DNA of 64,000 nucleotides. Source: a virus. The stretch lies in UHGV virus genome UHGV-1550212; one strand, written 5' to 3'. Below, piece after piece: positions 11,469 through 62,428 of the stretch; the first letter of the stretch is position 1; every line of letters starts with the position of its first letter. The notes beneath the pieces were generated by a model, which was given only the letters and a program-made list of their open reading frames with translations, did not search any database and was not told the DNA's origin. The position numbers and the translations under genes are program-made.

Positions 11469-11918
11469 CTATTGATGATTGTTGTTATCGCACTTATTGA
11501 GCAACTGGTCATAATACGTTTGCTCTGTCTTACGTTGCTGCTCTATCAAAATAATAATTTGTTCCATTTGAATTTCAAATGCAGCGTTTTTGCGAACAAG
11601 TGCTTTATGTTGCTCAGTAGTTAATGCTGCGTCAAGAATATCCAACATATCTGCATGATATGCAGCAATAATTTTGTTGTATTGCTGCATAGCAGTTTGC
11701 AAAGACTCAAATGACTGGTCAGATAGTGTTGACAAAATTTGAACATGCATTTTGTCTGTCAAGCCAATTTTTGCTTGCAGCAAATCACGTTCTGCCGAAT
11801 GCTTTCTGTCAATGTTGATGATAAACATCATCAAAATCATCAATACAAAAGCTATAACAGTCTTGTAGTTCTTGTCATCAATGAATCGCAGCAAAAATAT
11901 GTCTAAAAACTTTTCCAT
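11469..11918 (-). CDS. hypothetical membrane-anchored coiled-coil protein
   Basis: 149 aa, ATG confirmed; hydrophobic segment VIAFVLMILMMFIINI near the N-terminus followed by a predicted helical/coiled region. Confidence 0.45.
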   Translation of the reverse strand: MEKFLDIFLLRFIDDKNYKTVIAFVLMILMMFIINIDRKHSAERDLLQAKIGLTDKMHVQILSTLSDQSFESLQTAMQQYNKIIAAYHADMLDILDAALTTEQHKALVRKNAAFEIQMEQIIILIEQQRKTEQTYYDQLLNKCDNNNHQ

Positions 11919-13524: not shown

Positions 13525-15135
13525 TCAACATTCTACATACGAGCCATCAGTGTTTTCAACAAGCACTTTGATACTCAAGCTTACATCTGTGCCTTGTTGA
13601 CTTCTTATCAATGGCACAATGTCTTTTGCTTGCGGTGCAATATTGCCCATATTGTCAATGTGCTTGTCATTGCCAATGAACTGCACATCTACTGATTTGA
13701 TGACATCAAGCTCTTCAAGTTTTGCAATTGCAGCAGAACGACTAACGAATGTCGATGCATTTGACCAGGAGTCTTCTACAAACGCTTTTGCGGCATCAAG
13801 CAGTTGTTGTTTGACGTCTTCTATGTTTTGCAGTACTGCAGTCTTTTTGACAAGAATGAGCATTTGATAAAATTCAAGTTGCACAGTGTCAAATTGCACA
13901 TCAGTTAGCAGCACATAGTCACCAGTGTTTTCGATAGCATTGTTCAGATATTGTCTATCTGTAGAGTCAATCGTAAATTCTGCTATTGGCAATGACCAGT
14001 AGTCATACACTATTGAGCTCGCTTTGACATACTTGTCTGCAATGTTGGGCACCAGTACAACATGAATTGTCTGAGTCTCTGTATTTGACCAGACATCAAG
14101 TATCTTGTACTGACCAAAACGTGACATAAACGCCCTGATTGAATCTGCTGAGTGCAATACAAGCGCCCTGTTAATTGAACCTGCATGTGAACGTATTGAT
14201 TCGATGTCTTCACCATTGTAGCCGCCGACAATATCTGTCAGCTGTTCAATGACTAATACACCCTTTGGGCTTACAGCAGTAGTGTTTGCATCATACATGC
14301 CATTGACCCATTCAAATGTTGCGTCATTGTCAATCAAAATGTTTCCTGCATAGCCCTCACATGCAGTGTATTCTACATTGACAACTGCATTTTGTGCAGG
14401 AATTTGACCAGCAGTGCCATTGCCAAACACAATCTGTAGTTTGCCATCATATGACCAGCGTTCAATATACCCCTTGCTGTATCTGTCCATTTCATCAAAC
14501 CCTGCATAGCGAGTCCACAGCTCATTGCCAACTGTGACAGTCAATGAATCTTCAGATACAATCAAGTTGCGTTCTTCGATAGTGAATGTTGTCATTGACT
14601 CGCCATCAGAAATGTATTGCTGAGACTTGCGTTCACCTTGTCTGACTGCGAATTCATATCGTACACCCGTCAACTCATTGTTGATGTTGAGTTGCGCAAA
14701 GTCTTGATGCATATCGATGTAGTACATCAATGAGTTCTCTTTGCATTTAATTGCTGCATATCGTTTAATGAACACAGTTGGACCAAGCTCTTTGACTGCA
14801 TCATATGAAAAACTCAATGCAATTTTGCCTGATGCTGCAATGCCACCAACACATTTGTAACATGCAAGCTGTGCAAGTCCTCGTACAGATGCGGTCTGTT
14901 CTGCAGTAAGCAAGTTGTTTTCTTTTGTGCCTACTACAATTTGCGTAAAGATGAGTGACGCAAGTTCTCTGAAACTCTGAACAAGAATTCCAAAAATTGT
15001 GTACTTACCATATTGTTTCTTTGTAGAGTTCAGCAAATTCTGCAGCCAAGTATCTATAGACTGTGACACACCTGAATATGACATTTGCATTTTCTGCATC
15101 CACGTCATATTGTCACGAGTGTTATTTGTGCGCAT
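13525..15135 (-). CDS. hypothetical structural protein
   Basis: Track ORF 13525..15237; its first ~34 codons translate the 30-bp tandem repeats, so the start is placed at ATG 15135 (MRTNNTRDNMTWMQ); ATGs at 15108 and 15099 are also possible. Confidence 0.5.
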   Translation of the reverse strand: MRTNNTRDNMTWMQKMQMSYSGVSQSIDTWLQNLLNSTKKQYGKYTIFGILVQSFRELASLIFTQIVVGTKENNLLTAEQTASVRGLAQLACYKCVGGIAASGKIALSFSYDAVKELGPTVFIKRYAAIKCKENSLMYYIDMHQDFAQLNINNELTGVRYEFAVRQGERKSQQYISDGESMTTFTIEERNLIVSEDSLTVTVGNELWTRYAGFDEMDRYSKGYIERWSYDGKLQIVFGNGTAGQIPAQNAVVNVEYTACEGYAGNILIDNDATFEWVNGMYDANTTAVSPKGVLVIEQLTDIVGGYNGEDIESIRSHAGSINRALVLHSADSIRAFMSRFGQYKILDVWSNTETQTIHVVLVPNIADKYVKASSIVYDYWSLPIAEFTIDSTDRQYLNNAIENTGDYVLLTDVQFDTVQLEFYQMLILVKKTAVLQNIEDVKQQLLDAAKAFVEDSWSNASTFVSRSAAIAKLEELDVIKSVDVQFIGNDKHIDNMGNIAPQAKDIVPLIRSQQGTDVSLSIKVLVENTDGSYVEC

Positions 15136-15160: not shown

Positions 15161-15232
15161 TTCGAATGTGCACACATGAGAATAGGTCTCTTCGAATGTG
15201 CACATATGAGAATAAGTCTCTTCGAATATGTA
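15161..15232 (-). repeat. tandem ~30-bp direct repeats (2.4 copies) with TGTGCACA palindromic core
   Basis: TTCGAATGTGCACACATGAGAATAGGTCTC (15161-15190), TTCGAATGTGCACATATGAGAATAAGTCTC (15191-15220), then a partial copy TTCGAATATGTACACA; sits between a terminator and the gene start. Confidence 0.6.
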
Positions 15233-15266
15233 CACAAAAAGAAGAGCTTGCATATGCAAGCTCTTC
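15233..15266 (-). terminator. rho-independent terminator
   Basis: Perfect palindrome GAAGAGCTTGCATATGCAAGCTCTTC (15241-15266) followed on the minus strand by TTTTTG; 43 nt downstream of the stop of 15309..15692. Confidence 0.55.
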
Positions 15267-15308
15267 CATCACCAAAACCTATCTAATTATGGAAACACCT
15301 CTGAAAGG

Positions 15309-17447: not shown

Positions 17448-17948
17448 TTATGAAAGCTGAGCTGTAGTGTACCAAGTTAAGTCAGATTCATTGTACGTCA
17501 ATGCAATTGTAAGAGCTTGACCAAGTTGCTGTGACAATTGCTTACATGAATCAATGAATGCTTGCATATCTGCATATGACTTTGTGTAGAACATGCACCA
17601 TTCTGTTGTATTGACTGCGACATTATGAACATCTGCAAGATGACAGACTTCTACAGATGATACATTAAAGTCTGAGCCATCTTCATCAACATGATGCACA
17701 TTGTTTGCGCACCAATACTGATACAAACGAGCTTTGTCTGATGCAGTCATGTCAAACTGCATGCATTGAGCAATTGATTCATCGACATTATCAATGAATT
17801 GCTTTGCTGATTTTGACTCAAGCATCGCATGATGCAGTGTATAATTTGCATGCCAGTCTGGAGTGCCGATTGCTACGCTAAGCTGATTTTCAAACACAAA
17901 CTGCTGTGCTTGAGCTTCTTCGTAGCATTGTGTCCATGTCTTTGTCAT
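17448..17948 (-). CDS. hypothetical protein
   Basis: Track ORF 17448..17978 begins with TTG; first ATG at 17946-17948 (MTKTWTQCYEE) used. Confidence 0.45.
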   Translation of the reverse strand: MTKTWTQCYEEAQAQQFVFENQLSVAIGTPDWHANYTLHHAMLESKSAKQFIDNVDESIAQCMQFDMTASDKARLYQYWCANNVHHVDEDGSDFNVSSVEVCHLADVHNVAVNTTEWCMFYTKSYADMQAFIDSCKQLSQQLGQALTIALTYNESDLTWYTTAQLS

Positions 17949-18006: not shown

Positions 18007-18046
18007 CAAAATAAGGCCAGACTACTCGGTTGAGCTTGTCTGGCCT
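18007..18046 (-). terminator. rho-independent terminator
   Basis: Stem AGGCCAGAC / GTCTGGCCT (18014-18046) followed on the minus strand by TTATTTTG; 20 nt downstream of the sigma-factor stop. Confidence 0.5.
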
Positions 18047-18065
18047 TTCAAATGCATTTTGCTTA

Positions 18066-18962
18066 TTACAATGTTCCGCAAAGCAATTCACGTAAATCCA
18101 TGCCAGCTTGTGTACTATACTGAGCAATAAGATTACGTTCTGAATCAGACATGCTCCAATAAATCTTATGCTGAGCTCTACGAATAATAGTATGAATGCC
18201 AGATGTGCTACAATTGAACTTCTTTGCAAGTTCTGCATGAGTTAACAAATCCGCATCGCCAAGGCCATACACATGTGTGAGTACAAGCTTTTCATTTTGA
18301 GTGAGTTGTTCAAATGCTCTTTGCAGAATCTTTGTGTTGCGTTTGTGAGCATCCTCGATTTCAAGAACTTCTTGGCCTGTTTTGAAGTCTGACCTCAAAT
18401 CATTCTGAACTGGTGACCATGCATCACCATCTTTATCAAGTGTAGTGTCATCCTTACTGGTGAATTGTTTGCCTTCAAGAGCTCTTTCATATGCTCCACG
18501 AATACCAGTAGATAATTGTTGACTTGTCAGATTGAGTTCGTCAAGCACATATTTCTTAATCCAAGGATATGCATATGTGCTAAACTTTGCTTCACGAACT
18601 CCTGCAGGCAATACGCCTTCTACGTAATTCTTGGCTGCTATTGACAATCCAAGATTGCCTGCTTGAATGACGTCATCCAATGGAACCGAGCGTTTGCCAG
18701 ATGCGAACCATAAGCTTCGTGCAACTGATATGACCAATCTTAAACAAGATTTGATAAGAGCTTCACGATTTTCTTGAGTCTTCTTGAATCGAGTAACATC
18801 ACAATATCGCTTTGCAGTAGCCAGCGATTTGACTTCTTCAGGAGTAAGCTCATTCTCCATCCTCATTTGCTTGAGCTCCTCCTTTGTGTATAGACGTTCT
18901 CTTGTGATTCTACCTACGTCCTTTACGTAGCCTTGATTGATTTGTGAATTTGAACCTGCCAT
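18066..18962 (-). CDS. sigma-70-family RNA polymerase sigma factor
   Basis: 298 aa, ATG confirmed. DDVIQAGNLGLSIAAKNYV...KFSTYAYPWIKKYVLDEL matches sigma-70 region 2 (DLIQEGNIGLMKAV...RFSTYATWWIRQAI); C-terminal HAELAKKFNCSTSGIHTIIRRAQHKI is a region-4-like helix-turn-helix. Confidence 0.6.
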   Translation of the reverse strand: MAGSNSQINQGYVKDVGRITRERLYTKEELKQMRMENELTPEEVKSLATAKRYCDVTRFKKTQENREALIKSCLRLVISVARSLWFASGKRSVPLDDVIQAGNLGLSIAAKNYVEGVLPAGVREAKFSTYAYPWIKKYVLDELNLTSQQLSTGIRGAYERALEGKQFTSKDDTTLDKDGDAWSPVQNDLRSDFKTGQEVLEIEDAHKRNTKILQRAFEQLTQNEKLVLTHVYGLGDADLLTHAELAKKFNCSTSGIHTIIRRAQHKIYWSMSDSERNLIAQYSTQAGMDLRELLCGTL

Positions 18963-19064
18963 GGTTGTGTAACTTATTTAGTTTTAATTTGTTATATAAA
19001 TTTAATCATTTTTTGTCACATGTGAAACGTTTTGCACATTATTTTCACATAAAGTGTAAAAAAG
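18963..19064 (-). promoter_or_regulatory. AT-rich upstream region of sigma-factor gene with sigma-70-like hexamers
   Basis: On the minus strand GTGACA, 18-nt spacer, TATAAC lies about 30-60 nt upstream of the ATG; hexamer match only. Confidence 0.3.
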
Positions 19065-20123
19065 TTATGAACGTCTTGTTAACAATGCATGACCACAATC
19101 ATAAACTGCAACATAGCCAGTGTTAAGCATCTCTTGCTCATCTTGGCCGGCGTCTACAATATGTTCTTTGCTGTTAAGTTTGACCCAGTGCTTGCAGATT
19201 GTTGATTTATCATCTGACAATTTAGGGTTAATGCAGAAGTCTGTTGAGTTTATTGTGTTGTCGAGATGTTGTTTGATGACATCGACAACTTGCTCTGGTG
19301 TCATCCAATCAAACACTGTTATGCAAGTGTAGCCATATTTGAGAGCAAGTTGAGCTTTGTTGAAGTGATAGTCGAATGGAATTGGATGATTGTGTTTTGA
19401 TTTGCCAATTGCATATGCATAGCCATATGTAGAGTTGTGACTGATTGTTGGGCAAATTTCAATCAGCAAATGCTTATAATGCAGGTCATATGACTGGCGT
19501 TCAATATTGACGTCATCACAGTCAAATGCAAGCCCAAGTTCTTGTAACAGCAAAGTTTGCCATCGTTTGTTTGTAGCTGATATGACATTTTTGTGAGCAT
19601 TGCGACATTTTTGATGCATACAAAAGAATGGGACACCATATTTTTGCTGCATCAATTTAGTGTCAATGCCTGCTGCATTGCCATAACGTTCAAGCTTCGT
19701 TGCTCTAATTTTGTCAGCATCACCCCAAATGTTGCCATATCGTTTGCGCTTTGTGTCTTGAGACTTCTTAATGTTGCCACTGCGGTTGCCATAAATAAGT
19801 TCCTTTGATTGACACGCATGTTCAGCAGCATCTGGCCCATATATGTGACCGTATTTTTGAAGCTTAATTTCATTGATACGTTCTACTGGGCCATTTGGAT
19901 GACCATAGCGTTCTTGTTTGATGCGTTTTGTGTGCTCAATTGTTGACTTTAATGCAAGCTTTGACGTGACGCCAAATTTGCGCAAACAGCCTATTCTAAT
20001 ATTGAAACTACGTTTAATATGTGATGCTTCTATTTTTGTAACAGCCAATTGCAATGCATCATCACGTTCAGTTTCAAGCATGCAAATTTGTTCATCAATT
20101 GTCATAGCATCAAACCATTTCAT
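19065..20123 (-). CDS. homing-endonuclease-like protein, paralogue 1 (tandem R/K-YG repeats plus C-terminal putative nuclease domain)
   Basis: 352 aa, ATG confirmed. Five repeats of the type K.ERYGHPNGP / KLQKYGHIYGP / RKRYGNIWGD / LERYGNAAG / QQKYGVP, then a conserved C-terminal block (YDLHYKHLLIEICPTISHNS ... VYDCGH) shared with 35290..36585 and 48845..49876; free-standing between conserved genes. Confidence 0.4.
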   Translation of the reverse strand: MKWFDAMTIDEQICMLETERDDALQLAVTKIEASHIKRSFNIRIGCLRKFGVTSKLALKSTIEHTKRIKQERYGHPNGPVERINEIKLQKYGHIYGPDAAEHACQSKELIYGNRSGNIKKSQDTKRKRYGNIWGDADKIRATKLERYGNAAGIDTKLMQQKYGVPFFCMHQKCRNAHKNVISATNKRWQTLLLQELGLAFDCDDVNIERQSYDLHYKHLLIEICPTISHNSTYGYAYAIGKSKHNHPIPFDYHFNKAQLALKYGYTCITVFDWMTPEQVVDVIKQHLDNTINSTDFCINPKLSDDKSTICKHWVKLNSKEHIVDAGQDEQEMLNTGYVAVYDCGHALLTRRS

Positions 20124-21693
20124 TCAACTTGTCAACATTCTTTTTGGCATCTGCACTTTGTACAAATGCATAGACGTTGTCATAGACTTTGCTAATTGCT
20201 GCATCTGTATAGTCATAGAAGTTGTGTCGAGTTCTTGAAGTTCTACCACCTTTGATGCCGAGTGATGTTTTGTCAGAATCTGATGGTTTCCAATATGTTC
20301 GCCCAAACCCAGTAGATAAAATCATACTTTCCACACCAGACCTATCTCGAGGCATAGCATGCTTCAAATGGCAAGTTACAATGAAGTCAGTTGGAAAGTC
20401 ATCATAGCCAAGCTCACTTGATGCAGGTTGAATGTCAGTTTTCGTCAAGATAAGATTGCCAATGCATGCAATTGGGCGAAGGGGATTTCCTAATAGCAAG
20501 TGCCATTCGCCGATGGCGTCGCCCTTCAACAAGCTATTCATAACAGGGATTGCTGGTCGACCAATAGTGTTCAAGAATTTTGCAACAGCAAAACGTTGAA
20601 ATGCAAGTTTAGCAATCTGCTGCAATTTTTGTTTTGCTGCTTCTTTTCCACCACCGCTTGCATTCATAATGTTTTGGGCAATACCTTTGAAGAAGTCTGT
20701 GATTGAGTTGAATGAACCATCAAGTGCATCTTGAATAACTGCAGATTCAAGTTCAAGCGCTTTGTTCCAGAATATTGAAGGCTGACCGCCGACCCAATAT
20801 CGGCCCCCACCCCAAAACTTTGCATCATTGTATGTGCATTGCATCACATTGCTCAACAAGTCAAGCATTGCTGTTTTGGGATTGATTCCATCAATCGACT
20901 TCAATGAATAAAAGAATTTGACAGTCAATTCATGTTCGAAGTTCAAACCAACATCACGAATATGAGTCTGCGTAATTGAATCAATCGGGCCATAAACTTT
21001 GTTATGGTCATGTGTAGGGTCTATTGACAGTCGTGCTTTGCCACGCATTTGGTCTTTTGCATACACTGGGTCCATCAATTTTGCCACTCGACCCATCCAG
21101 CCACTAATGCCATAATTACCTCCACTGTCACCACGCATTTCGCCTTGCTCCAATGCAGCAGATAATTCTTTCCAACGCATGCCAAAACTGAAGCTTAGCA
21201 AATCTTCAAGTTTGTTGTTTTCACCATCAAACCACGTAATCATATGGGCGATTTCTGGTGTTTGCTGAACTGTTGTGTTGAAGATGTCATCTTGACATGG
21301 CTCAGCAAATCTACGCAATGTGATGAGTCTGTTGTTCGGGATTTGGCCAAGAAATCTGCAATATGCAAAGTCTTGCCAATCATATGTTGATGCACCAATG
21401 GGGTTGTTGATGATATTTGCTGCAGTAGGCGTCAAGTATTGCAGGCCTTGCAAGTCTTGGTCAAAGTACACAGTTTTGCCATCAGGCAATTGCGGTGCTG
21501 CAAATAGATTCCATGCATTGAACAAAGACTGCACACCTTGTTTTGATGCATCTTCTGCACCACGAGGCATATCAGCATTGAGCTTCTTTTCATAAAAACC
21601 ATGCTCATAATCTGTTTCTTGTGCAAATGCGCCAGTCAGTGTGCTACTATCTGCATTAAGCTTATTGTCTTTTGGCGGAGCTATTGTAGCCAT
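20110..21693 (-). CDS. hypothetical virion protein
   Basis: Track ORF 20110..21723 begins with TTG; first ATG at 21691-21693 (MATIAPPKDNKL) used; 527 aa. Confidence 0.5.
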   Translation of the reverse strand: MATIAPPKDNKLNADSSTLTGAFAQETDYEHGFYEKKLNADMPRGAEDASKQGVQSLFNAWNLFAAPQLPDGKTVYFDQDLQGLQYLTPTAANIINNPIGASTYDWQDFAYCRFLGQIPNNRLITLRRFAEPCQDDIFNTTVQQTPEIAHMITWFDGENNKLEDLLSFSFGMRWKELSAALEQGEMRGDSGGNYGISGWMGRVAKLMDPVYAKDQMRGKARLSIDPTHDHNKVYGPIDSITQTHIRDVGLNFEHELTVKFFYSLKSIDGINPKTAMLDLLSNVMQCTYNDAKFWGGGRYWVGGQPSIFWNKALELESAVIQDALDGSFNSITDFFKGIAQNIMNASGGGKEAAKQKLQQIAKLAFQRFAVAKFLNTIGRPAIPVMNSLLKGDAIGEWHLLLGNPLRPIACIGNLILTKTDIQPASSELGYDDFPTDFIVTCHLKHAMPRDRSGVESMILSTGFGRTYWKPSDSDKTSLGIKGGRTSRTRHNFYDYTDAAISKVYDNVYAFVQSADAKKNVDKLNEMV

Positions 21694-26295: not shown

Positions 26296-26357
26296 ATTGT
26301 TCAGATGTTTTGCTTTGTATATGTATCGAATCTCATTGCATTTGATTATGTATCACT

Positions 26358-26397
26358 GTGTGCATTTTGCATCACGAAGTGCATTTTGCATATCATC
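26358..26397. promoter_or_regulatory. two copies of TGCATTTTGCAT operator-like core
   Basis: GTGCATTTTGCATCAC (26360-26375) and GTGCATTTTGCATATC (26379-26394) in the 100-bp gap upstream of the fibre gene 22957..26295. Confidence 0.4.
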
Positions 26398-35289: not shown

Positions 35290-36585
35290 CTATTGTTTGC
35301 GTTGTAATGTCAGTAGTCCACAGTCATATACAGGTAAAAATCCTGCAGCATTGTAGTCTTCTGCATGTGATATGTCATTGTCTATAAAATGCTCACCAGT
35401 TCGCATATTATGCCAATGACATTGTATAACATTGCTTACTAATTTATAGTCATCTACATATTTTGTAGGGTCTTCTTTTGACAAGTCTATTGTAATAACG
35501 TCGGCAGTTTTCAATTGTTCTGTGTCATCGATGATTGACTTTAGCAATGCGACAATTGTATCAGCGTCATCCCAATCCCAAATTGTGACGCATCGATAGC
35601 CTTGCGACATTGCTTTGCAACATTTGTCTGCATGACTATTTGCATGTCTATGCCAATTTGCTGCAGAGCGGCCTGTCATATACTCAAAGCTATACGCACT
35701 ATTATGCGTAAACGTTGGATTGATTTCAATTGCTATGTTCTCATAGCGTAAGTCATATGTAAATGATTCTATTTGCGGTTGCTCAAACTCAAATTGAACG
35801 TTAAGCGATTCTAACAAGTATCGTTGCCACCATTGATTTTGCTTAGATATGATGTGACCTTGCGCAAGTTTACAATGTGTAGTCATGCAATAATATGGCA
35901 CACCATAACGCATCATATTTGTACGTACAACTGCTTGTGTGCGTCGTTTTAAGTCACCGCCCCACTTGTTGCCATACCGTTCAAGCTTTGTTTGCGTTGC
36001 CAGTTGTATATTCACACATCCATTTGCTTTGCCATATCGTTCAAGTTTGACTTGCGTAATTTTGTCCATAGGCCCAAATGCATTACCAAATTGTGCAATC
36101 TTTGTAGCTTTCATTTTGTCAATATTGCCAACACCTTTGCTGCCAAATCGAACAAGCTTAGTGTCGCCAACTTTGCATTTAACATCATGCAATTGTGATA
36201 TGAATTCTACACCGTATTTGAGCAAGTTATTGATGCGACCATTATAACGCTGTTTAATGATGCCATGCGATGTTTTGCGTGGTGCATAACGAACAAATGG
36301 TGTATTAGCAAGTTCAGCATCTCGCAATTCTTCAAGTTCTTTTATTCGAGCTGCATGTTCAGATGCGTTATCATATTGCAACGCGCCAGCATGACGTTCA
36401 TATGGCAATCTTCCATGCTTACGTATGAAAGCAATTTTGTTTGCATATTGCACACGTATCTTACTATGTGTAGATACTCTTGCGCTTAATTTTGCATATG
36501 GCGTTTCTGCAATCAATTTATCACGTTCAGCTTCAAGTTCTTTTATTCGAGCTTCAAGAGCATCACCAGTTAGTCGTTCAGCCAT
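35290..36585 (-). CDS. homing-endonuclease-like protein, paralogue 2 (with internal N-terminal module duplication)
   Basis: Track ORF 35290..36633; start placed at ATG 36583-36585 (MAERLTGDALEARIKELE). Coiled-coil N-terminal module present twice (nt 36300-36360 and 36500-36560 share CTTCAAGTTCTTTTATTCGAGC), R/K-YG repeats, C-terminal block IEINPTFTHNS ... VYDCG. Divergently adjacent to the terminase start. Confidence 0.4.
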   Translation of the reverse strand: MAERLTGDALEARIKELEAERDKLIAETPYAKLSARVSTHSKIRVQYANKIAFIRKHGRLPYERHAGALQYDNASEHAARIKELEELRDAELANTPFVRYAPRKTSHGIIKQRYNGRINNLLKYGVEFISQLHDVKCKVGDTKLVRFGSKGVGNIDKMKATKIAQFGNAFGPMDKITQVKLERYGKANGCVNIQLATQTKLERYGNKWGGDLKRRTQAVVRTNMMRYGVPYYCMTTHCKLAQGHIISKQNQWWQRYLLESLNVQFEFEQPQIESFTYDLRYENIAIEINPTFTHNSAYSFEYMTGRSAANWHRHANSHADKCCKAMSQGYRCVTIWDWDDADTIVALLKSIIDDTEQLKTADVITIDLSKEDPTKYVDDYKLVSNVIQCHWHNMRTGEHFIDNDISHAEDYNAAGFLPVYDCGLLTLQRKQ

Positions 36586-36652
36586 TGTGCATGAATGTTC
36601 AATATGTAAATTCACTATATGTACATATAACACGAATATTCAAGTTAGATGC

Positions 36653-38644
36653 ATGGCTGAAGTCAAGAATCAAGTGTTTAATCCAGTAGCACAATTCAAA
36701 TCTGCTGAAGAAAAAGAAGCTGCGAAAGTTATATGGTGCAGTGAATCAGTCGCAATGGCATATGATGCAGTTGACCAAGGCTTGCCACTTAGAGCAAATC
36801 CGTGGTTCTTTGGCAATATTGCACTGCGTAAGCCCGGATTGCTATACAGATACACTGACATAGAATTGCGTGAATGGCTTAGATGCAAGTATGACATATT
36901 ATATTTTGCTGACACATGGTGTCAGATTTTAACTCCAGATGGCACAAGAAAGCATTTTAATTTGAGACCATATCAACGCAAAATGCTGCGTGCATATCAA
37001 CGACAAAAGTATACGATAGTTCTTACTGGGCGACAAGTAGGCAAAACGGTCGTTACATCAGTATTTCTCGCTTGGGCAGTCATTTTCAATCGTGAGCTTA
37101 ACATAGCAGTACTTGGCGACCGCTTGGCAACATCAAGTGAAAACCTGAACAAAACAAAAGACATCATAAACAATCTGCCGTTCTTTATGAAGCCTGGTGT
37201 GTTTGTTTGGAATGGCGGAATGGTCGCATTTGACAATGGTTGCAAAATTATCACAGGTACTGCTCAAAAGTCATCACTTGTCGGTAAGACAATTCACATC
37301 TTATATCTTGATGAGCTCGCAATTCCACCTGCTCAGCAATCAAAGACTCTTGTAGATTATGCATTGCCAACAATTGCGTCATTGCCAACTGGCAAAGTTA
37401 TCGTAACATCTACGCCATCTGGTGATAATGTGTTCAAGACTTTGTGGCTTGGTGCAATTAACAAAACAAATGGCTTCTTTCCAATTCAAGTAAACTGGTG
37501 GGATATTCCTGGCCGTGATGAAAAGTGGAAAGCTGAGCAAATCGCAATTCTTGGTGAAGATGCTTTCAATGAGCAATACAACTGCGTGTTCTTGTCAGGT
37601 GCAACGTCAATTTTCAATTCAAGAGCAATTGATGATATTGCAAGACGACAGCAAAAGTATGAATTTGTTGCTGATGAGCGTCTTGAATCACTACTCAGAT
37701 TCTTCATTGCTGATTCAGATGTCGGCACTGAACCCGAGCCGCACTCATTTATGACTTGGCGTGCAGATATTGACCCAGCAACACTCAAAAATGAAACATG
37801 TATCATCAATATTGACATTGCTGAAGGTTTATCTGGCGACTTTTCTGTCATACATGTGCATCGTATAGTTGACATTACAAAAGATGTTGAACTTGAACTT
37901 GATGCAAGCAATCTGTATGATATGTTTGACGATGACAAAAAATCATTGTTTGCAAAAGCAGTTGAAATGCAACGTCAAATGTCAGCAACACAAGCTCAAG
38001 ATGATGACGATGATGACGATGACGACTGGTTTGGCGCAGACGATGATGTCGCTCAAGGCGTTGATGCATATCAAGATTATGCGAATGCTGCAGTAGAAGA
38101 GATTGGCTTATGGCGTTCAAATGTGACATCAATCAAAGTCATGGCTCTGTATTTGCAGTTCTTAATGACGTATGTGTTTGATGCAAACAAAACAAAGATT
38201 ATCTATGAACGCAACAAATATGGTGGAGAGTTTCGTTCATATTGTTTGTCTGAACGTGCACGCAATATTGCAATTGATGAAGAGAGCTTCGTAAGCTTCC
38301 AACGAACTCTTGGTTCAGAACAACTTGCACCAGGCTGTTCAATTACGCCTGGCACCAAACCAGTGTACGTAAGACAGCTCAAAGACCTTATTGAAACTGG
38401 CAAGATTCTTGAAAACAATGCAGATACGCAAAGAGAGCTTACATATTTTGGCGGTGTCAAAGGCAAGAATGGTCACGTGTCATATCAGGCGTCACCTGGC
38501 TTCCATGATGACATTGCAATGACTCTTGTATCTCTTGCAGCATTTATGGACACTCGATGCAATGACTGGCTTGAACTGCTTGATGTGTTCTACAATGGCA
38601 GCAGTCAAACAAGTTCTGATGATGACGATGATGACTGGATTTGA
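36653..38644 (+). CDS. terminase large subunit
   Basis: ATG at 36653 (MAEVKNQV); the track's 36425 start overlaps the neighbouring minus-strand gene. ATPase motifs LTGRQVGKT (Walker A) and ILYLDELA (Walker B), followed by a nuclease-type C-terminal half. Contains an internal D9-W-F tract (38000-38029) and ends DDDDDDWI. Confidence 0.7.
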   Translation: MAEVKNQVFNPVAQFKSAEEKEAAKVIWCSESVAMAYDAVDQGLPLRANPWFFGNIALRKPGLLYRYTDIELREWLRCKYDILYFADTWCQILTPDGTRKHFNLRPYQRKMLRAYQRQKYTIVLTGRQVGKTVVTSVFLAWAVIFNRELNIAVLGDRLATSSENLNKTKDIINNLPFFMKPGVFVWNGGMVAFDNGCKIITGTAQKSSLVGKTIHILYLDELAIPPAQQSKTLVDYALPTIASLPTGKVIVTSTPSGDNVFKTLWLGAINKTNGFFPIQVNWWDIPGRDEKWKAEQIAILGEDAFNEQYNCVFLSGATSIFNSRAIDDIARRQQKYEFVADERLESLLRFFIADSDVGTEPEPHSFMTWRADIDPATLKNETCIINIDIAEGLSGDFSVIHVHRIVDITKDVELELDASNLYDMFDDDKKSLFAKAVEMQRQMSATQAQDDDDDDDDDWFGADDDVAQGVDAYQDYANAAVEEIGLWRSNVTSIKVMALYLQFLMTYVFDANKTKIIYERNKYGGEFRSYCLSERARNIAIDEESFVSFQRTLGSEQLAPGCSITPGTKPVYVRQLKDLIETGKILENNADTQRELTYFGGVKGKNGHVSYQASPGFHDDIAMTLVSLAAFMDTRCNDWLELLDVFYNGSSQTSSDDDDDDWI

Positions 38645-41757: not shown

Positions 41758-41832
41758 TTGTTTTGATGCAAAATGCAAAACAATATAAAATTGTTTTGAT
41801 GCAAAATGCAAAACAATATAAAATTGTTTTGA
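41758..41832 (-). repeat. tandem 33-bp repeats (2.3 copies) carrying the TGCATTTTGCATC core
   Basis: GTTTTGATGCAAAATGCAAAACAATATAAAATT x2 plus a partial copy; 26 nt upstream of the Cys-rich gene and just downstream of the ligase stop. Reverse complement of the motif in the 728-875 array. Confidence 0.6.
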
Positions 41833-41835
41833 TAT

Positions 41836-44432: not shown

Positions 44433-44478
44433 TATAGTGATATAGTACAACAAAAATCTCAAATTTGCACACTATGAT
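44433..44478 (-). promoter_or_regulatory. composite promoter-like element
   Basis: Minus strand: ATCATAGTGTGCAAATTTGAGATTTTTGTTGTACTATATCACTATA, 15-60 nt upstream of ATG 44417; near-identical copies at 59956-60000 and 62388-62428. Confidence 0.5.
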
Positions 44479-48775: not shown

Positions 48776-48844
48776 TTGTTGTGATATGTGATATGATGCA
48801 AAATGCATATTCATATTGTATATGAATATGATACAACAAACGTG
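48776..48844 (-). promoter_or_regulatory. promoter-like region upstream of clamp loader
   Basis: Minus strand: CGTTTGTTGTATCATATTCATATACAATATGAATATGCATTTTGCATCATATCAC; combines the TTGTA+ATAT element with one TGCATTTTGCATC core. Confidence 0.45.
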
Positions 48845-49876
48845 TCAATTTTGCACAGCATGACCGCAATCGTACACAGGCAAAAAGCCTGCGTCAAGCA
48901 TCTCTTGTGTATCTTGTCCACAATCTTTAACATATTGTCGTGTTTTGAAATTATGCCAATGCTTATGAATTGTTGACTTGTCATCTGACAGCTGTGGATT
49001 GAGCGCGAAGTCAGTCGAGTCTACTGGTTCACCTGCAAGATGCTTTCTAATGGCATCAATGACTTCATTGTCATCCATCCATTCGAATATTGTAATGCAA
49101 GTGTAGCCATGCTTGAGAGCAAGCTGAGTTTTGTTGAAGTGATAGTCGAATGCAAGTGGATGATTATGCGTTGATTTGCCCATTGCATATGCAAATCCAT
49201 ATGCTGCATTGTGTGAAAACGTTGGGTTAATTTCAATGAGCAATTTGCAATGTTCATTGCTGTAGTTCAAATCAAATGAAAATCTATGCAATGAAATTTC
49301 ATCATAGCCACAATTGATGCAAAGTTCTTGCTGCAGTTTATCATGCCAATATTTGTTTATCGCTGAAATTGGGCGACCATTTGCATCTCTGCATCTCTTT
49401 GTCATGCAAAACCATGGCACACCATATCGTTGCAGCGTTGTTGCATTGATTTTTTGTTTAGGCCCAAATGCATTGCCATACAAGCGTTGTTTTGTTTCAA
49501 GCATTTTGTTAATGTTGCTTAGAGAGTCACCCCACTTTGCTCGTTTTGTTTCAATTGATTTTGCGACGTTGCCCCATGCATTGCCGTAGCGCTCTAAATT
49601 TGTTTGTCGTTGTTTAGCGACATTGCCCATGCCATTGCCATATTTTGCACGTTTTGATGCAACCATTTTCGCAGCAACATCTTTGCATTGATTGCTATGT
49701 TCTACACCATATTTGTGCAAACATGCTATTTTTCGATTGTACTTTGTTTTAATTGCGCCATGCGATGTTTTACGTGGCGCATATCTCACAAATGGCGTTT
49801 CTGCAAGCAATTTGTCTCTTTCCTCTTCAAGTTCTTTTATGCGAGCTTCAAGAGCTTCTCCTGTCAATTTTTCCAT
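48845..49876 (-). CDS. homing-endonuclease-like protein, paralogue 3
   Basis: 343 aa, ATG confirmed. N-terminus MEKLTGEALEARIKELEEERDKLLAETPFVRYAPRKTSHG nearly identical to paralogue 2; R/K-YG repeats; C-terminal IEINPTFSHNAAYGFAYAMGKS ... VYDCGH. Sits between the helicase terminator and the clamp-loader promoter. Confidence 0.4.
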   Translation of the reverse strand: MEKLTGEALEARIKELEEERDKLLAETPFVRYAPRKTSHGAIKTKYNRKIACLHKYGVEHSNQCKDVAAKMVASKRAKYGNGMGNVAKQRQTNLERYGNAWGNVAKSIETKRAKWGDSLSNINKMLETKQRLYGNAFGPKQKINATTLQRYGVPWFCMTKRCRDANGRPISAINKYWHDKLQQELCINCGYDEISLHRFSFDLNYSNEHCKLLIEINPTFSHNAAYGFAYAMGKSTHNHPLAFDYHFNKTQLALKHGYTCITIFEWMDDNEVIDAIRKHLAGEPVDSTDFALNPQLSDDKSTIHKHWHNFKTRQYVKDCGQDTQEMLDAGFLPVYDCGHAVQN

Positions 49877-56022: not shown

Positions 56023-56089
56023 ATTGTCGAAATCTTGTTTGTGTTATATGTACACAAAACTGCACCAGCAATTTTGCTGGTGCAGCTGG

Positions 56090-57740: not shown

Positions 57741-57760
57741 TCCTATATTATTGTACAACG
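57741..57760 (-). promoter_or_regulatory. promoter-like element upstream of topoisomerase gene
   Basis: Minus strand: CGTTGTACAATAATATAGGA; contains the palindromic TTGTACAA core. Confidence 0.4.
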
Positions 57761-57766
57761 ATGTTG

Positions 57767-57940
57767 TTAGATTTGCATCATTTGAATATCTTCAAATCTG
57801 CAAAGCTGCGCAGTAGACTGAATACGGAATACTAAGAATACACCAGAATCAGTGACGCATTTAACAAGTGCATCTTCATTTGTGGGCGTGTACAATACGA
57901 CATCCCAAGGTTCAAGTTGTTTTGCTTCTTCTGCTGTCAT
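57767..57940 (-). CDS. hypothetical small protein (57 aa, not in ORF track)
   Basis: ATG at 57938-57940 (MTAEEAKQLEPWDVVLYTPTNEDALVKCVTDSGVF...), stop at 57767-57769; fills an otherwise uncoded gap. Confidence 0.25.
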   Translation of the reverse strand: MTAEEAKQLEPWDVVLYTPTNEDALVKCVTDSGVFLVFRIQSTAQLCRFEDIQMMQI

Positions 57941-58920: not shown

Positions 58921-59164
58921 TTTGTGTATGTTCTTGATTTGCTTGTTCTGCTAAGTTGTTTATGAATGCTTTGAGCAATGTAATGATTGTTGTTAGCAAC
59001 TGAATTTGAAACAATACAATGCTAAACACGACAATTGCTACAACGCAAAATGAAATGAAGAGCATATTGATGTCAAATTTGTTTGCTATCAATGTTTGCA
59101 GCCAAGTTATGACTGCAAACATTGAAATCAGTATGAATGCTTTGTGCTGTGATAACGATTTCAT
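58898..59164 (-). CDS. small two-transmembrane-segment protein (holin-like topology)
   Basis: 88 aa, ATG confirmed; two hydrophobic segments (FILISMFAVITWL and FISFCVVAIVVFSIVLF) and a polar C-terminus. Confidence 0.35.
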   Translation of the reverse strand: MKSLSQHKAFILISMFAVITWLQTLIANKFDINMLFISFCVVAIVVFSIVLFQIQLLTTIITLLKAFINNLAEQANQEHTQNDSGTAN

Positions 59165-59880
59165 TTGAAATGTGTGGATGTTGGATTAGTGTCGGTCATT
59201 CTAACATGCCAATCATAAATGAACCATCTTGCGAGGTCATCATTTTTGATGTTATGAGTTTTGACATACTGTTCAGGACCTAATGCCTCACCAGTTTCAG
59301 GATTGACTGCGAAATGAGATTCATCTACATTAGTAGACTTGTTTTTGATGTTTGAGATTCGGAGCTTTGTATGCAGTTCAGTGCCATCAGATTGCAGTGT
59401 TTTGACATAGAATGCAGTTTTTGTCGTTGCTTCATTGTCAAGCCATACTCCAAACTTAACTCCGTGCGATTTCCAGTATGCATTGTCAGCATCCCTGATT
59501 GCTTTGAAGTTCGGGTCATCCAACCAAGGTTTGAAGACGTATACAGCATGTTGTTCTTTTCGAGTGATTTCGCCTTTGCCTTCACAAACTGTATGATACA
59601 GCCGCATTGCAGTTTCTTCATCAAAATAGTAAGTCAGATTGCCTGGCTTATCAAATGTGCCAAGCTGTTGACCATCGATTACAAGAATGAATGTGTACCG
59701 CGAATCCTTAAAGAATTCTACTTGTACAGGCTGTTTGTGCTGTTTGCTGTTAAGCAGTCTGTCAATTGTAATGACTGCCCAGTTGGTGCCTGTCTTTGTT
59801 TTGTTGCCGTGAAACAGTTCAGGATATGAAACTGTGTAAGGCAATGCTTTGTACTTCCAATGTTCATTAAAGCTTTTCAT
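59161..59880 (-). CDS. hypothetical protein
   Basis: 239-aa ORF, ATG confirmed. Confidence 0.5.
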   Translation of the reverse strand: MKSFNEHWKYKALPYTVSYPELFHGNKTKTGTNWAVITIDRLLNSKQHKQPVQVEFFKDSRYTFILVIDGQQLGTFDKPGNLTYYFDEETAMRLYHTVCEGKGEITRKEQHAVYVFKPWLDDPNFKAIRDADNAYWKSHGVKFGVWLDNEATTKTAFYVKTLQSDGTELHTKLRISNIKNKSTNVDESHFAVNPETGEALGPEQYVKTHNIKNDDLARWFIYDWHVRMTDTNPTSTHFK

Positions 59881-59955: not shown

Positions 59956-60000
59956 ATATGATAATTGTACTACAAAAATCCCAAATTTGCACACTTTGAT
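59956..60000 (-). promoter_or_regulatory. composite promoter-like element
   Basis: Minus strand: ATCAAAGTGTGCAAATTTGGGATTTTTGTAGTACAATTATCATAT, about 75-120 nt upstream of ATG 59880. Confidence 0.5.
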
Positions 60001-60039
60001 AATCAAAAGTGCAAACAAAATTCAAAGTTATATTGTACA

Positions 60040-60069
60040 TCACAAAGTGCAAATTTGCACTTTGTGATG
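60040..60069. promoter_or_regulatory. perfect 30-bp palindrome (candidate operator)
   Basis: ATCACAAAGTGCAAATTTGCACTTTGTGAT is its own reverse complement; core GTGCAAATTTGCAC is shared with the composite promoter-like elements. Confidence 0.55.
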
Positions 60070-60215
60070 TTAAAATGCCCCATTGTACAATATTTTGTGC
60101 TATTTTGCACAAAGCAGCATGTTAAAATGTAACCATTTATAACGCTGCAAAATGTCTGCATAAAATAAGCAGCTTAGCAATCTAAGCTGCTGTCATTGTA
60201 TGCATGCAGTCACTG

Positions 60216-60701
60216 TCATTTGTAGTGCTCAGTTATGTATGCTGAGCATAGCAATACAACTGATATGCAAATGACAATGTATGTTGGTGTAATCAGTGTC
60301 ACATTAAATAGCAATGCAGTCAATGCGCATACTGTTACTGATATAAGTGTTGAAATGAATACTGCATATGTACTAAACTTGCTTTTGAATAGACGCTCAA
60401 TGATGTACGTTGTTACAATAGATAGCAAGACTATGCATACAAATAACAGCAACCAAGTTGAGTTTGACGTTGTCGGCTCTTCAATAAATTGCAATGTTGC
60501 AGATGATACTTCAATGTTGTTTGGCGCTTGTAAAGTGCCACTTGCTGCATCTGCGTACATCACAGTTAAGTAGTGTCGTTGAATTTCTGCTGCGTCTACT
60601 TTATAGATTCTATGCCATGCAACATCTGATATGATGTATGTTGCAGCCATAAATGCAGCAATGCATAGCATATAAGAGCCAAACTTTGCAATCGGTTTCA
60701 T
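60216..60701 (-). CDS. integral membrane protein (about 4 transmembrane segments)
   Basis: Track start 60749 is TTG; ATG at 60699-60701 (MKPIAKFGSYM); multiple long hydrophobic stretches. Confidence 0.45.
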   Translation of the reverse strand: MKPIAKFGSYMLCIAAFMAATYIISDVAWHRIYKVDAAEIQRHYLTVMYADAASGTLQAPNNIEVSSATLQFIEEPTTSNSTWLLLFVCIVLLSIVTTYIIERLFKSKFSTYAVFISTLISVTVCALTALLFNVTLITPTYIVICISVVLLCSAYITEHYK

Positions 60702-61079
60702 GCAAATATATTTTTGTTTGTATATGTACATAAAAGAGCAAGTTCTCAATGTGGAGAACTTGCTCAGCTGACCTGTTGCCAGGTGAAAGCGTGGTGCAGC
60801 ACCTTGTGCTGCAATGGCTATGCTGCCATCGCCATAACGGGCTGAGCATTGCCCAGCATCATTACACGACCAGCTGCATTAAGCGTACGCTTTGCTTTGT
60901 TGAAAAATTTGCCAGTTATCTGGTATCTGCACATCTATTCAAGCGACCTACTATGCAATCAAATGCCTGTCGAGCCCAATGTTTGAGCAGTTGTTTGTCA
61001 GATGCTCAGCTGACTGCAGTCTTTCTGAGTGTATCAAGTTCAGCGATTCTGCATCTTTGCTAAATGGCAATAGTTCAGG

Positions 61080-61155
61080 TGGACTCGCCGAGAATCGAAC
61101 TCGGGTCTTACATAGCGCATCCTTGACTTGGTCCTGTAAACAGGGTTGTCAACAT
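61080..61155 (-). pseudogene. tRNA-like 3' fragment (T-arm plus acceptor 3' strand only)
   Basis: Minus strand: CCGAG-TTCGATT-CTCGG followed by CGAGTCC-A, but no matching 5' acceptor strand, D-arm or anticodon arm within 80 nt upstream. Confidence 0.3.
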
Positions 61156-61160
61156 GCATT

Positions 61161-61231
61161 GCAATACGACAGGACTCGAACCTGCGACCTCGGATTGGAC
61201 GTCCGCGCTCTTACCGCTGAGCTACGTATTC
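61161..61231 (-). tRNA. tRNA, probably tRNA-Gly (anticodon TCC); Trp (CCA) not excluded
   Basis: Minus strand: GAATACG-TA-GCTC-AGCGGTAA-GAGC-GCGGA-CGTCCAA-TCCGA-GGTC-GCAGG-TTCGAGT-CCTGT-CGTATTG-C. Canonical D- and T-arms; anticodon stem has a G-A pair and position 33 is G, so the register is uncertain. Hand fold. Confidence 0.5.
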
Positions 61232-61321
61232 TTATCAATTGACTGCACTGCAATGCAATCAATCGTGCCAATGATATTTGACGCATAATTGCAGTTATGC
61301 GTAACAATTCAAATGTCATTG

Positions 61322-61394
61322 AGCCAACTGCAGGAGTCGAACCTGTAACCTGCTGATTACAAATCAGCTGCTCTGCCAATTGAGCTAAGTTGGC
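61322..61394 (-). tRNA. tRNA-Thr (anticodon TGT)
   Basis: Minus strand: GCCAACT-TA-GCTC-AATTGGCA-GAGC-A-GCTGA-TTTGTAA-TCAGC-AGGTT-ACAGG-TTCGACT-CCTGC-AGTTGGC-T; perfect 7-bp acceptor and 5-bp anticodon stem. Confidence 0.8.
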
Positions 61395-61476
61395 ATAAAG
61401 TCGTTGGGCCATTGCAACCCAAACCTATCATCTTTGTCTAACCAAAGATGCAAGTGTTCTCTTACACCACGACTTG

Positions 61477-61548
61477 TAGCCGAACTTGGAGTCGAACCAA
61501 GCTTTCGAGAATGAAAATCTCGCGTCCTAACCGATAGACGAAACGGCC
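61477..61548 (-). tRNA. tRNA-Glu (anticodon TTC), acceptor stem imperfect
   Basis: Minus strand: GGCCGTT-TC-GTCT-ATCGGTTA-GGAC-G-CGAGA-TTTTCAT-TCTCG-AAAG-CTTGG-TTCGACT-CCAAG-TTCGGCT-A; D-arm identical in form to E. coli tRNA-Glu, but acceptor pairs 6-67 and 7-66 are T-T. Confidence 0.5.
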
Positions 61549-61635
61549 AAGAGCAGTTCAAGTCTGCAGCATTGAACTGCGGAAACAATGCCTGTACGGG
61601 CAGCAAATTGTGCAGATACAGCGACATTGCAAAAT

Positions 61636-61728
61636 CACACCGAACCAAGTTTGTGGCTCTTCTGTCTCATAAAAACAAGTAATCATTACACTTGGCACCA
61701 ATGATTCTGATGTAAAAATCGGTGTGTT
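61636..61728. ncRNA. structured RNA-like element with 8-bp terminal inverted repeat (not a canonical tRNA)
   Basis: CACACCGA (61636-61643) pairs with TCGGTGTG (61721-61728); internal hairpin CAAGT-AATCATTAC-ACTTG; no T-loop consensus. Lies between tRNA-Glu and tRNA-Ser. Confidence 0.25.
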
Positions 61729-61731
61729 ATG

Positions 61732-61816
61732 CGGAGAGTAAGGGATTCGAACCCCTGGTACGTTGCCGTACAGTGGTTTTCAAGACCACCGCCATCGACC
61801 GCTCGGCCAACTCTCC
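61732..61816 (-). tRNA. tRNA-Ser (anticodon TGA), long variable arm
   Basis: Minus strand: GGAGAGT-TG-GCCG-AGCGGTCGAT-GGC-G-GTGGT-CTTGAAA-ACCAC-TGTACGGCAACGTACC-AGGGG-TTCGAAT-CCCTT-ACTCTCC-G. Confidence 0.8.
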
Positions 61817-62010
61817 ATAAAACATTGCATAAGCATTCTTATCTCTTGATGAGACCAAGTAGCTAATTTGGCAAGTTTGTTATATCTATCGTGACTGTTG
61901 CAGTTTGTTTGTCACTCAATACACAAAACTTTCGAACATTCATTGACAGCACTGCAATATCGCTTTTTAAGCTTAGCCATCAATGTATTTATGCAATGTA
62001 TAACAATTCG

Positions 62011-62092
62011 TAGCCAAACCGGGACTTGAACCCAGACTCCTAATGGAACAACATTTTGAGTGTTGCGTGTCTACCAATTCCACCATTTGGCC
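62011..62092 (-). tRNA. tRNA-Leu (anticodon CAA), long variable arm
   Basis: Minus strand: GGCCAAA-TG-GTG-GAATTGGTAGA-CAC-G-CAACA-CTCAAAA-TGTTG-TTCCATTAGGAGTC-TGGGT-TCAAGTC-CCGG-TTTGGCT-A. Confidence 0.75.
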
Positions 62093-62182
62093 ATTTACAA
62101 ATGCAATCTATTTCACAACTGTTTGCATTTGCATTGTTTAACACTAAAAATATGATTCATCTAATCAAAAACCAGAGAATTG

Positions 62183-62256
62183 TAGGGTAGACAGGACTCA
62201 AACCTGCGACCACGTGGTCCCAAACCACGCATTCTAATCAACTGAACTACTACCCT
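62183..62256 (-). tRNA. tRNA-Pro (anticodon TGG)
   Basis: Minus strand: AGGGTAG-TA-GTTC-AGTTGATTA-GAAT-G-CGTGG-TTTGGGA-CCACG-TGGTC-GCAGG-TTTGAGT-CCTGT-CTACCCT-A; all stems pair. Confidence 0.8.
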
Positions 62257-62262
62257 AAGTAG

Positions 62263-62334
62263 TTGAACCGTCTGGACTCGAACCAGAAATGGCTGAACCA
62301 AAATCAGCTGTGTTACCGATTACACCACGATTCA
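62263..62334 (-). tRNA. tRNA-Gln (anticodon TTG)
   Basis: Minus strand: TGAATCG-TG-GTG-TAATCGGTAA-CAC-A-GCTGA-TTTTGGT-TCAGC-CATT-TCTGG-TTCGAGT-CCAGA-CGGTTCA-A; U1-A72 as in bacterial tRNA-Gln. Confidence 0.75.
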
Positions 62335-62387: not shown

Positions 62388-62428
62388 TTTATAGTGATAT
62401 AATACTACAAACATTTATGATTTGCACC
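62388..62428 (-). promoter_or_regulatory. composite promoter-like element upstream of the tRNA cluster
   Basis: Minus strand: GGTGCAAATCATAAATGTTTGTAGTATTATATCACTATAAAATAC, about 55-95 nt upstream of tRNA-Gln (first tRNA in transcription order). Confidence 0.45.

Follow-up and report, generated by a model that had tools for sequence, protein, structure and literature searches.

Large T4-like phages (group 2 jumbo phages) carry RpoD-like 'complete' sigma factors, such as gp1 of Sphingomonas phage PAU and those of Chryseobacterium phages MA9V-1 and MA9V-2, and phage T4 has gp55, a minimal sigma factor without region 4 (PMC7824862). phiEco32 gp36 and Salmonella phage 7-11 gp47 bind the host core enzyme and drive middle or late genes, and gp36 possesses regions 2 and 4 and uses single-element promoters that have no -35 box (PMC8948821). 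For T4-like jumbo phages, use of the host core enzyme has been set out by Iyer et al. (2021) along the same lines (PMC7824862). Here we describe a sigma-70-family gene located in a 64,000-nucleotide (nt) stretch of the virus genome UHGV-1550212 (the window). Its product combines domains sigma-2 and sigma-4 without an intervening sigma-3, and its gene lies among virion genes. We propose that it redirects host RNA polymerase to a one-block promoter, TACATATA[A/C]AAA, and put the probability of this full chain at roughly one half. Coordinates are collected in Table 1.

The assignment of the 298-amino-acid (aa) protein follows directly from profile comparison. Two Pfam domains score above their curated cut-offs: Sigma70_r2 at aa 69–143 (33.2 bits, cut-off 24) and, C-terminal to it, Sigma70_r4 at aa 216–267 (26.2 bits, cut-off 24.1). 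TIGR02937 gives 67.3 bits (cut-off 42.9), PHROG_351 ('RNA polymerase sigma factor') matches at 5e-25, and all significant PHROG matches are to generic families of that same name. The family profile aligns with Escherichia coli RpoD (5.5e-14) over residues ~321–439, corresponding to regions 1.2–2.4; region 4 is also aligned, and region 4.2 matches that of RpoD without a gap. RpoD, SigA and RpoS rank first in single-sequence and profile searches of the PDB, and the NCBIfam subfamilies and PDB chains that match best are those of RpoD, RpoS and RpoH. The original prediction, a sigma-70-family member possessing both region 2 and region 4, is thus upheld. The protein is very probably a functional sigma factor and is nearer to RpoD than to ECF sigmas or gp55. 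Weak matches to HTH_10, Mor and MarR_2, all sub-threshold and confined to the helix-turn-helix (HTH), might instead point to another kind of HTH regulator with a fortuitous region 2. Such a regulator would have to carry two Pfam sigma domains above cut-off and in the right order, and is further contradicted by the RpoD profile, by an hhalign probability of 99.7% and by fold matches that are all sigma chains; we give this explanation almost no credence.

The architecture is a reduced version of that of cellular sigmas. hhalign comparison with sigmas that contain region 3 covers aa 37–266, leaving unmatched region 1.1 and the sigma-3 body (~35–40 template columns of region 3). No match to Pfam Sigma70_r3 was obtained for the 298-aa protein. 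Regions 2.4 and 4.1 are separated by only ~68 aa, in place of the domain sigma-3 of group 1 and 2 sigmas, and this linker retains an acidic segment resembling the region 3.2 finger (SPVQNDLRSDF). An AlphaFold model built from 10 sequences has a mean predicted local distance difference test score (pLDDT) of 67.7; it is confident for sigma-2 (pLDDT 78–89) and for sigma-4 (74–86 in the region 4 helices) with the tail that follows, and the linker is disordered. Foldseek returned only sigma-A, sigma-70 and sigma-S chains for this model, with low TM-scores (~0.2) because the domains of the free model are not arranged as they are when sigma is bound in holoenzyme; the hits served for their identity only. 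The C-terminal tail contains residues that are invariant in the family (E275, R276, G287, D289, R291 and C295). As had been anticipated, the protein is unlike gp55, a single sigma-2-like domain of ~185 aa lacking region 4, a distinction drawn here from length and domain content.

Residue equivalences were taken from gap-free alignments to RpoD and from the family alignment. The core-binding residues D403, Q406 and N409 of sigma-70 are retained as D97, Q100 and N103, and so are F427 (F127), Y430 (Y130) and W434. Other positions of region 2 have changed (Y425A, W433P at P133, Q437K at K137, T440L at L140 and R441D), and the region carries two small insertions relative to cellular group 1/2 sigmas. 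In region 4.2, T253, S254, H257 and T258 stand in the place of the -35 contacts R584, E585, R588 and Q589, the recognition helix reading S-T-S-G-I-H-T versus T-R-E-R-I-R-Q in sigma-70; positions 257 and 258 differ among family members. The canonical residues for reading -10 (W433, Q437 and T440) and -35 elements are therefore absent. Ten full-length homologues (43–99% identity) share the same start and the same architecture. Within them, the block KFSTYAYPWIKKYVLDELNLTSQQL (aa 126–150) is near-invariant despite an overall protein identity of just 44–78%: all ten members have the same residue at 18 of its 25 positions, and five more are at least 90% conserved, making 23 of 25 at that level.

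The recurring promoter-like elements that the original prediction had noticed in the window resolve into two classes, both above chance. The first was found by unbiased k-mer enrichment across 76 upstream regions drawn from the window and its relatives, in which TACATAT is the top 7-mer by count (21 regions, 2.4 expected) and the highest enrichment ratio (9.4) belongs to the 8-mer GTACATAT. Within the window, TACATATAMAAA with at most one mismatch occurs nine times (1.2 expected), a count that 0 of 100 shuffles reach, and eight of the nine matches lie on the coding strand. We refer to this element, consensus TACATATA[A/C]AAA, as type B. The information profile of 18 non-redundant sites consists of one block, TACATATA plus AAA; no -35 partner is present upstream of TACATATA in these sites, where information content is at most 0.45 bits per position. 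Type B sites are positioned 17–30 nt ahead of real start codons, mechanical TTG starts of three open reading frames (ORFs) having been shifted to the internal ATGs at 15135, 21693 and 60701, and strong terminators precede four of the eight window sites. The genes behind them include the baseplate wedge, the gene directly past the sigma terminator and other virion-module genes. Seven lineages have a type B element after the sigma terminator; L092, the most divergent member (43% identity), instead carries ATATATAAA variants on either side of the sigma gene. That the motif exists, is enriched, is conserved and lies where it does are direct observations, as are the family membership and domain content of the sigma factor and the conserved unit formed by its gene. 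With no -35 partner in type B, and with 4.2 base contacts that are non-canonical and vary between lineages, the suggestion that region 4 would confer -35 reading is not borne out for this class.

Upstream of the baseplate-wedge gene, a 30-bp tandem repeat of 2.5 copies, GAGACTTATTCTCATGTGTGCACATTCGAA, occupies 15161–15236 (minus strand) between a terminator (15240–15267) and the TACATATA site, and a second GTACATAT is found at its upstream edge (15226–15233).

The second class, type A, is bipartite: GTGCAAA-N15/16-GTAYWAT, in which ~17 bp separate a -35-like GTGCAA from TAYWAT. It has eight matches in the window (0.25 expected), all on the coding strand, and precedes clamp-loader, topoisomerase and other replication-side genes and the tRNA array. 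Relatives L090 and L091 keep it in their replication modules, with spacing that shifts by one base. One explanation of these data, which we consider unlikely yet the strongest of the alternatives, is that the sigma factor reads type A, with region 4 on the -35-like box, and that an unseen factor, for example a gp55-like one, reads TACATATA. The strong enrichment and conservation of type A speak for this, as do a -35-like box that is not TTGACA, the intact HTH of sigma-4, and the precedents of phage 7-11 gp47, a phage sigma reading a bipartite promoter (PMC8948821), and of gp55, which serves -10-only late promoters in T4-like phages (in part PMC7824862). Against it, GTGCAAA is constant (once GTACAAA) in the window lineage and the L001/L090 lineage (the latter a single contig) while the recognition helices differ, STSGIHT in the former versus SASAVRM in the latter. 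An unchanged box facing differing helices, in the only class that has a -35-like box, argues for another reader of type A. Moreover, the -10 part of type A (TACAAT, TACTAT or TATAAT) is a canonical TAnnnT at ~17 bp spacing, which is what a housekeeping holoenzyme reads, and the tandem copies at tRNA and replication genes resemble early promoters, active before any phage protein. Finally, no homologue of gp55, gp33, the sliding clamp or RNA polymerase subunits was found among the window ORFs scanned, two thirds of the genome lying outside the window. A 'RNA polymerase beta' match for 11469–11918 (0.0093) contained no passing stretch and was disregarded.

At 60047–60060 (minus strand), one -35-like box of type A is part of a perfect palindrome, GTGCAAATTTGCAC, and similar sequences, GTGCAAA(A/T)(C/T)TTGCAC, are present in L091. 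From these, the box could also be a half-site for a dimeric regulator.

The sigma gene has a conserved setting of its own. Its position among the virion genes is constant in all lineages with sufficient flanks, the sequence of genes being a giant ORF, ORFs of ~207, ~160 and ~530 aa, sigma, ORFs of ~170, ~170, ~436 and ~135 aa, and the baseplate wedge. Seven lineages, the sigmas of which are 55–61% identical to that of the window (99% in L009), share this synteny together with an upstream block and a downstream terminator. In the window, the upstream block places TGTGAC at 19020–19015 and TATATA at 18998–18993, with TGATTAAATTT in the spacer; across the seven lineages it aligns as TGTGAA, 16 nt (T-rich, with GATTAA) and TATATA. 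A search of the window for further copies (TTGATTAAWTTTAnATA) found none beyond chance, leaving a single occurrence. On the other side, a hairpin and T-run follow the sigma gene in seven of eight lineages with stem sequences that are unrelated; six of these terminators have folding z-scores of -2.7 to -6.9, and the seventh (L093) was judged by eye. The upstream block and the downstream hairpin with its T-run thus define the sigma gene as a predicted monocistronic unit with a housekeeping-like bipartite promoter.

Immediately upstream of the sigma gene is a 352-aa ORF with repeated 'YG..G' motifs (19065–20123, minus strand). A 434-aa ORF in the corresponding position of L009, a near-identical lineage, shares 85% identity with it, and L001, L003, L005 and L007 have no counterpart there. 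Since no Pfam or PHROG match was found for it, this ORF looks like a lineage-specific insertion. In L092, the gene after sigma (931–1082) starts like the N-terminus of an IS605 OrfB/TnpB protein, judged by eye, and not like the usual virion gene.

Table 1 Features of the sigma locus and candidate promoter elements in the window.
Feature	Position	Strand	Details
Sigma-70-family factor gene	18066..18962	-	298 aa, ATG start, TAA stop
Domain sigma-2	18534..18770	-	aa ~65–143, regions 2.1–2.4; core-binding motif DVIQAGNLG
Linker in place of domain sigma-3	18330..18533	-	aa ~144–211; low model confidence
Domain sigma-4 with HTH	18162..18329	-	aa ~212–267
C-terminal tail past region 4.2	18069..18161	-	aa 268–298, ~30 aa; conserved; two short helices predicted
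Promoter-like region of the sigma gene	18991..19020	-	TGTGAC-16 nt-TATATA, or GTGACA-17 nt-TATAAC
Intrinsic-terminator-like hairpin and T-run	18008..18047	-	AAGGCCAGAC...GTCTGGCCTT; directly after the sigma stop codon
Type B, TACATATACAAA	17964..17975	-	19 nt before ATG of next gene (17448..17948); heads the virion-gene run after sigma
Type B, TACATATACAAA	15149..15160	-	17 nt before ATG at 15135, baseplate-wedge gene
Type B variant, TACATATCCTAA	21708..21719	-	Past terminator hairpin; 18 nt before ATG at 21693, 527-aa gene
Type B, TACATATACAAA	26314..26325	-	22 nt before 1112-aa gene
Type B, TACATATAACAC	56041..56052	-	Past strong terminator hairpin; 22 nt before 531-aa gene
Type B, TACATATACAAA	60717..60728	-	Past terminator hairpin; 19 nt before ATG at 60701
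Type B-like, TACATATAGTGA	36612..36623	-	Within palindromic TATATGTACATATA; divergent region between gene 35290..36585 and terminase
Type A, three in tandem (GTGCAAA-N15-GTACAAT)	59964..60110	-	Upstream of gene 59161..59880
Type A, further copies	44442-44470, 48828-48856, 57750-57778, 62399-62427		Last one ahead of tRNA array

We propose the following mechanism, in which the phage factor, composed of sigma-2, a short linker and sigma-4, would act as the switch to late transcription. Host holoenzyme would first transcribe from type A promoters and from the similar promoter of the sigma gene. The phage sigma would then displace the host sigma from the core enzyme, binding the core by way of sigma-4 and of the conserved surface of region 2.2. 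The new holoenzyme would initiate at type B promoters, 17–30 nt ahead of runs of virion genes and often just past a terminator, with the near-invariant region 2.3/2.4 reading the block and sigma-4 serving mainly as an anchor on the beta flap, without -35 reading. The host core enzyme is the likely partner because no RNA-polymerase-like protein was found among the window ORFs scanned (64 kb of a genome of at least ~178 kb). Pairing with type B and not type A is suggested by the constancy of the type A box across differing recognition helices, by its TAnnnT -10 part and by its early-promoter placement. Alternative sigmas that lack a melting residue need near-consensus promoters, and the loss of the W433 equivalent (P133), one of the two melting tryptophans, would make the same demand here. 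Single-element reading by phiEco32 gp36 provides a precedent (PMC8948821). We infer host core binding, timing and the pairing of the factor with the TACATATA class from these considerations taken together.

Several points weigh against this mechanism. In relatives, no terminator parts the upstream virion gene from the sigma gene, so that sigma may also be made late, through read-through. Some TACATATA sites (56052 and 60728) stand before genes without an assigned role, in the window's replication-side half. Conservation of region 2.3/2.4 would suit both motif classes equally. T4 late systems of the gp55/gp33 type read a -10-only, A/T-rich promoter, and such a system encoded elsewhere in the genome of at least ~178 kb could read TACATATA.

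A different possibility is that the main targets of the sigma factor belong to neither class: it could act on host genes, on a rare promoter such as that of its own gene (autoregulation), or mostly by competing with the host sigma for the core enzyme. The block upstream of the sigma gene, highly conserved yet single in the window, would fit such a role, as would the ATATATAAA-type elements on both sides of the sigma gene in L092, and some phage sigmas do act on host programmes. The fixed place in the virion module and the near-invariant melting and -10 region, however, are most simply matched with an equally conserved phage element, and pure competition would leave regions 2.3 and 2.4 with no need of conservation. 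We therefore regard this possibility as improbable.

Two elaborations of the proposed switch concern the tail and the timing. The single chain might unite gp55 (sigma-2-like) with gp33 (flap-binding, sigma-4-like), its tail motif G-h-D-h-R-x-h-h-C (aa ~287–295, where h is a hydrophobic residue) docking onto the phage sliding clamp or another activator. If so, docking of the tail would take over from -35 recognition and tie late transcription at TACATATA promoters to DNA replication; we view this as a long shot. In a second, likewise improbable variant, the sigma factor, its gene lying within the virion module with no terminator upstream, would be packaged, injected and active from the start of infection.

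The clade that carries this factor is narrow. An exhaustive profile search of 1.84 billion representatives returned full-length matches below 1e-60 from only four 50%-identity clusters, followed by generic sigma-70 superfamily members. The close homologues are all metagenomic, on clade contigs of up to 153–178 kb. Among deposited phages, a near-DNA search gave no match, and the deposited isolates contained no sigma above 31% identity over most of the protein. A family-profile scan of IMG/VR likewise found nothing more than 31% identical across the bulk of the protein, higher values being short region 2 segments, and recorded at least 455 loci of other viral sigmas. In 185,579 species-representative genomes, only short region 2 matches to cellular sigmas were found, with no prophage and no hint of a host. 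Since phage-borne sigma-70-family genes are this common, the gene is a member of a kind already described, the RpoD-like sigmas of large T4-like phages; what is new is an uncultivated clade without sigma-3.

The surroundings of the gene agree with the phage context expected from the original prediction. Nearly all window genes are on the minus strand, and they include baseplate wedge, tape measure, large terminase, clamp loader, topoisomerase II, NAD-ligase, exonuclease and DHFR genes. A Bacteroidota-type host is hinted at by three observations: a Shine–Dalgarno core (GGAG, GAGG or AGGA, 4–20 nt upstream of the start) is found in 0 of 53 called genes, the leaders being A-rich; the 1442-aa and 1112-aa proteins have weak, sub-threshold matches to the BACON domain; and phages of Chryseobacterium and Tenacibaculum carry relatives of the sigma factor. 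The Bacteroidota TTTG/TAnnTTTG promoter pattern, however, is not enriched in the window (4 found, 3.06 expected). A scan of the window for E. coli-type promoters was also unenriched (41 found, 36.7 expected), and the relatives of the NAD-ligase, which are all metagenomic phage contigs, point to no host. Stop-codon recoding was rejected on codon usage (TGA 25, TAA 22, TAG 5).

Seven tRNAs lie at 61161–62334 (Rfam, gathering threshold). Beside this cluster, ARAGORN called a permuted tmRNA (60727–61169, minus strand), which overlaps the start region of the ORF at 60216–60701 and, at the low-coordinate edge of the call, a TACATATA site. With this overlap and with no tmRNA found by Rfam, we regard the call as a probable false positive.

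Tandem arrays with periods of 28, 34 and 33 bp (711–875, 41758–41833 and 26361–26391) are built around GATGCAA(A/G)ATGCA (TGCA-AAA-TGCA). Ahead of the TACATATA site at 26325 there are two more copies, and another is found just past the sigma stop codon (18053–18062). These arrays are iteron-like and could be regulator-binding or origin-type repeats.

Among the long genes, only that of the large terminase (36425–38644) is on the plus strand. This gene diverges from a homing-endonuclease-like ORF (phrog_3339; 35290–36633, minus strand) across the palindromic TATATGTACATATA (36616–36629), and in L091 a TnsA-like ORF adjoins the terminase. From these two ORFs, the terminase neighbourhood appears to attract mobile genes.

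What is known of how phage sigma factors work is unchanged by these findings. The analysis contributes a transcription unit that is conserved and a candidate late promoter that is well defined. It thereby provides a testable regulatory scheme for large uncultivated phages of a clade with no representative in the isolate, IMG/VR or reference-genome collections searched: host-type bipartite promoters for replication and sigma genes, a phage sigma as the putative switch, and a sharply defined one-block late promoter. The compact pair of sigma and promoter might also serve as an orthogonal expression part.

Among known systems, cellular RpoD, SigA and RpoS provide the best sequence and fold matches, and the segment preceding region 2.1, regions 2.1–2.4, the 3.2-like linker and regions 4.1–4.2 all align with them; the phage factor differs from cellular group 1/2 sigmas in lacking region 1.1 and the sigma-3 body and in its extra C-terminal tail. 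ECF sigmas share the combination of sigma-2 and sigma-4 with a short linker, and the general model TIGR02937. However, Sigma70_r4_2 scores just 16.3 bits in the phage sigma (cut-off 25.7), the best 60 of 68 PDB profile matches include no ECF-named chain (they are RpoD, SigA, SigB, RpoS, HrdB and RpoH), and the first 60 aa of the protein align to the part of RpoD ahead of region 2.1.

T4 late promoters consist of a single A/T-rich -10-type block, TATAAATA, before virion genes. The window resembles the gp55/gp33/gp45 system of T4 in having such a block before virion genes and in its T4-type replication genes, whereas its sigma holds both domains in one chain. phiEco32 gp36 is comparable in that its single-element promoter reading is the behaviour proposed here; gp36 and gp47, in contrast, belong to small enterobacterial podoviruses with other promoter sequences, and no close similarity to them was seen, without direct comparison. 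The factor would be a further example that having region 4 does not imply a -35 box.

The RpoD-like sigmas of jumbo phages are the closest counterparts. They too are encoded by large phages that have T4-type replication genes but no RNA polymerase, possess regions 2 and 4, and are nearer to RpoD than to gp55, and they are the best matches among isolated phages. The window shows the features of group 2 of Iyer et al., namely T4-type replication genes, no RNA polymerase ORF and RpoD as the best match, within the 64 kb of the genome seen. It differs from those phages in that their sigmas are only 28–31% identical to its own over 64–90% of the length, and in that its sigma factors form a separate clade with their own C-terminal tail and a fixed position in the virion module.

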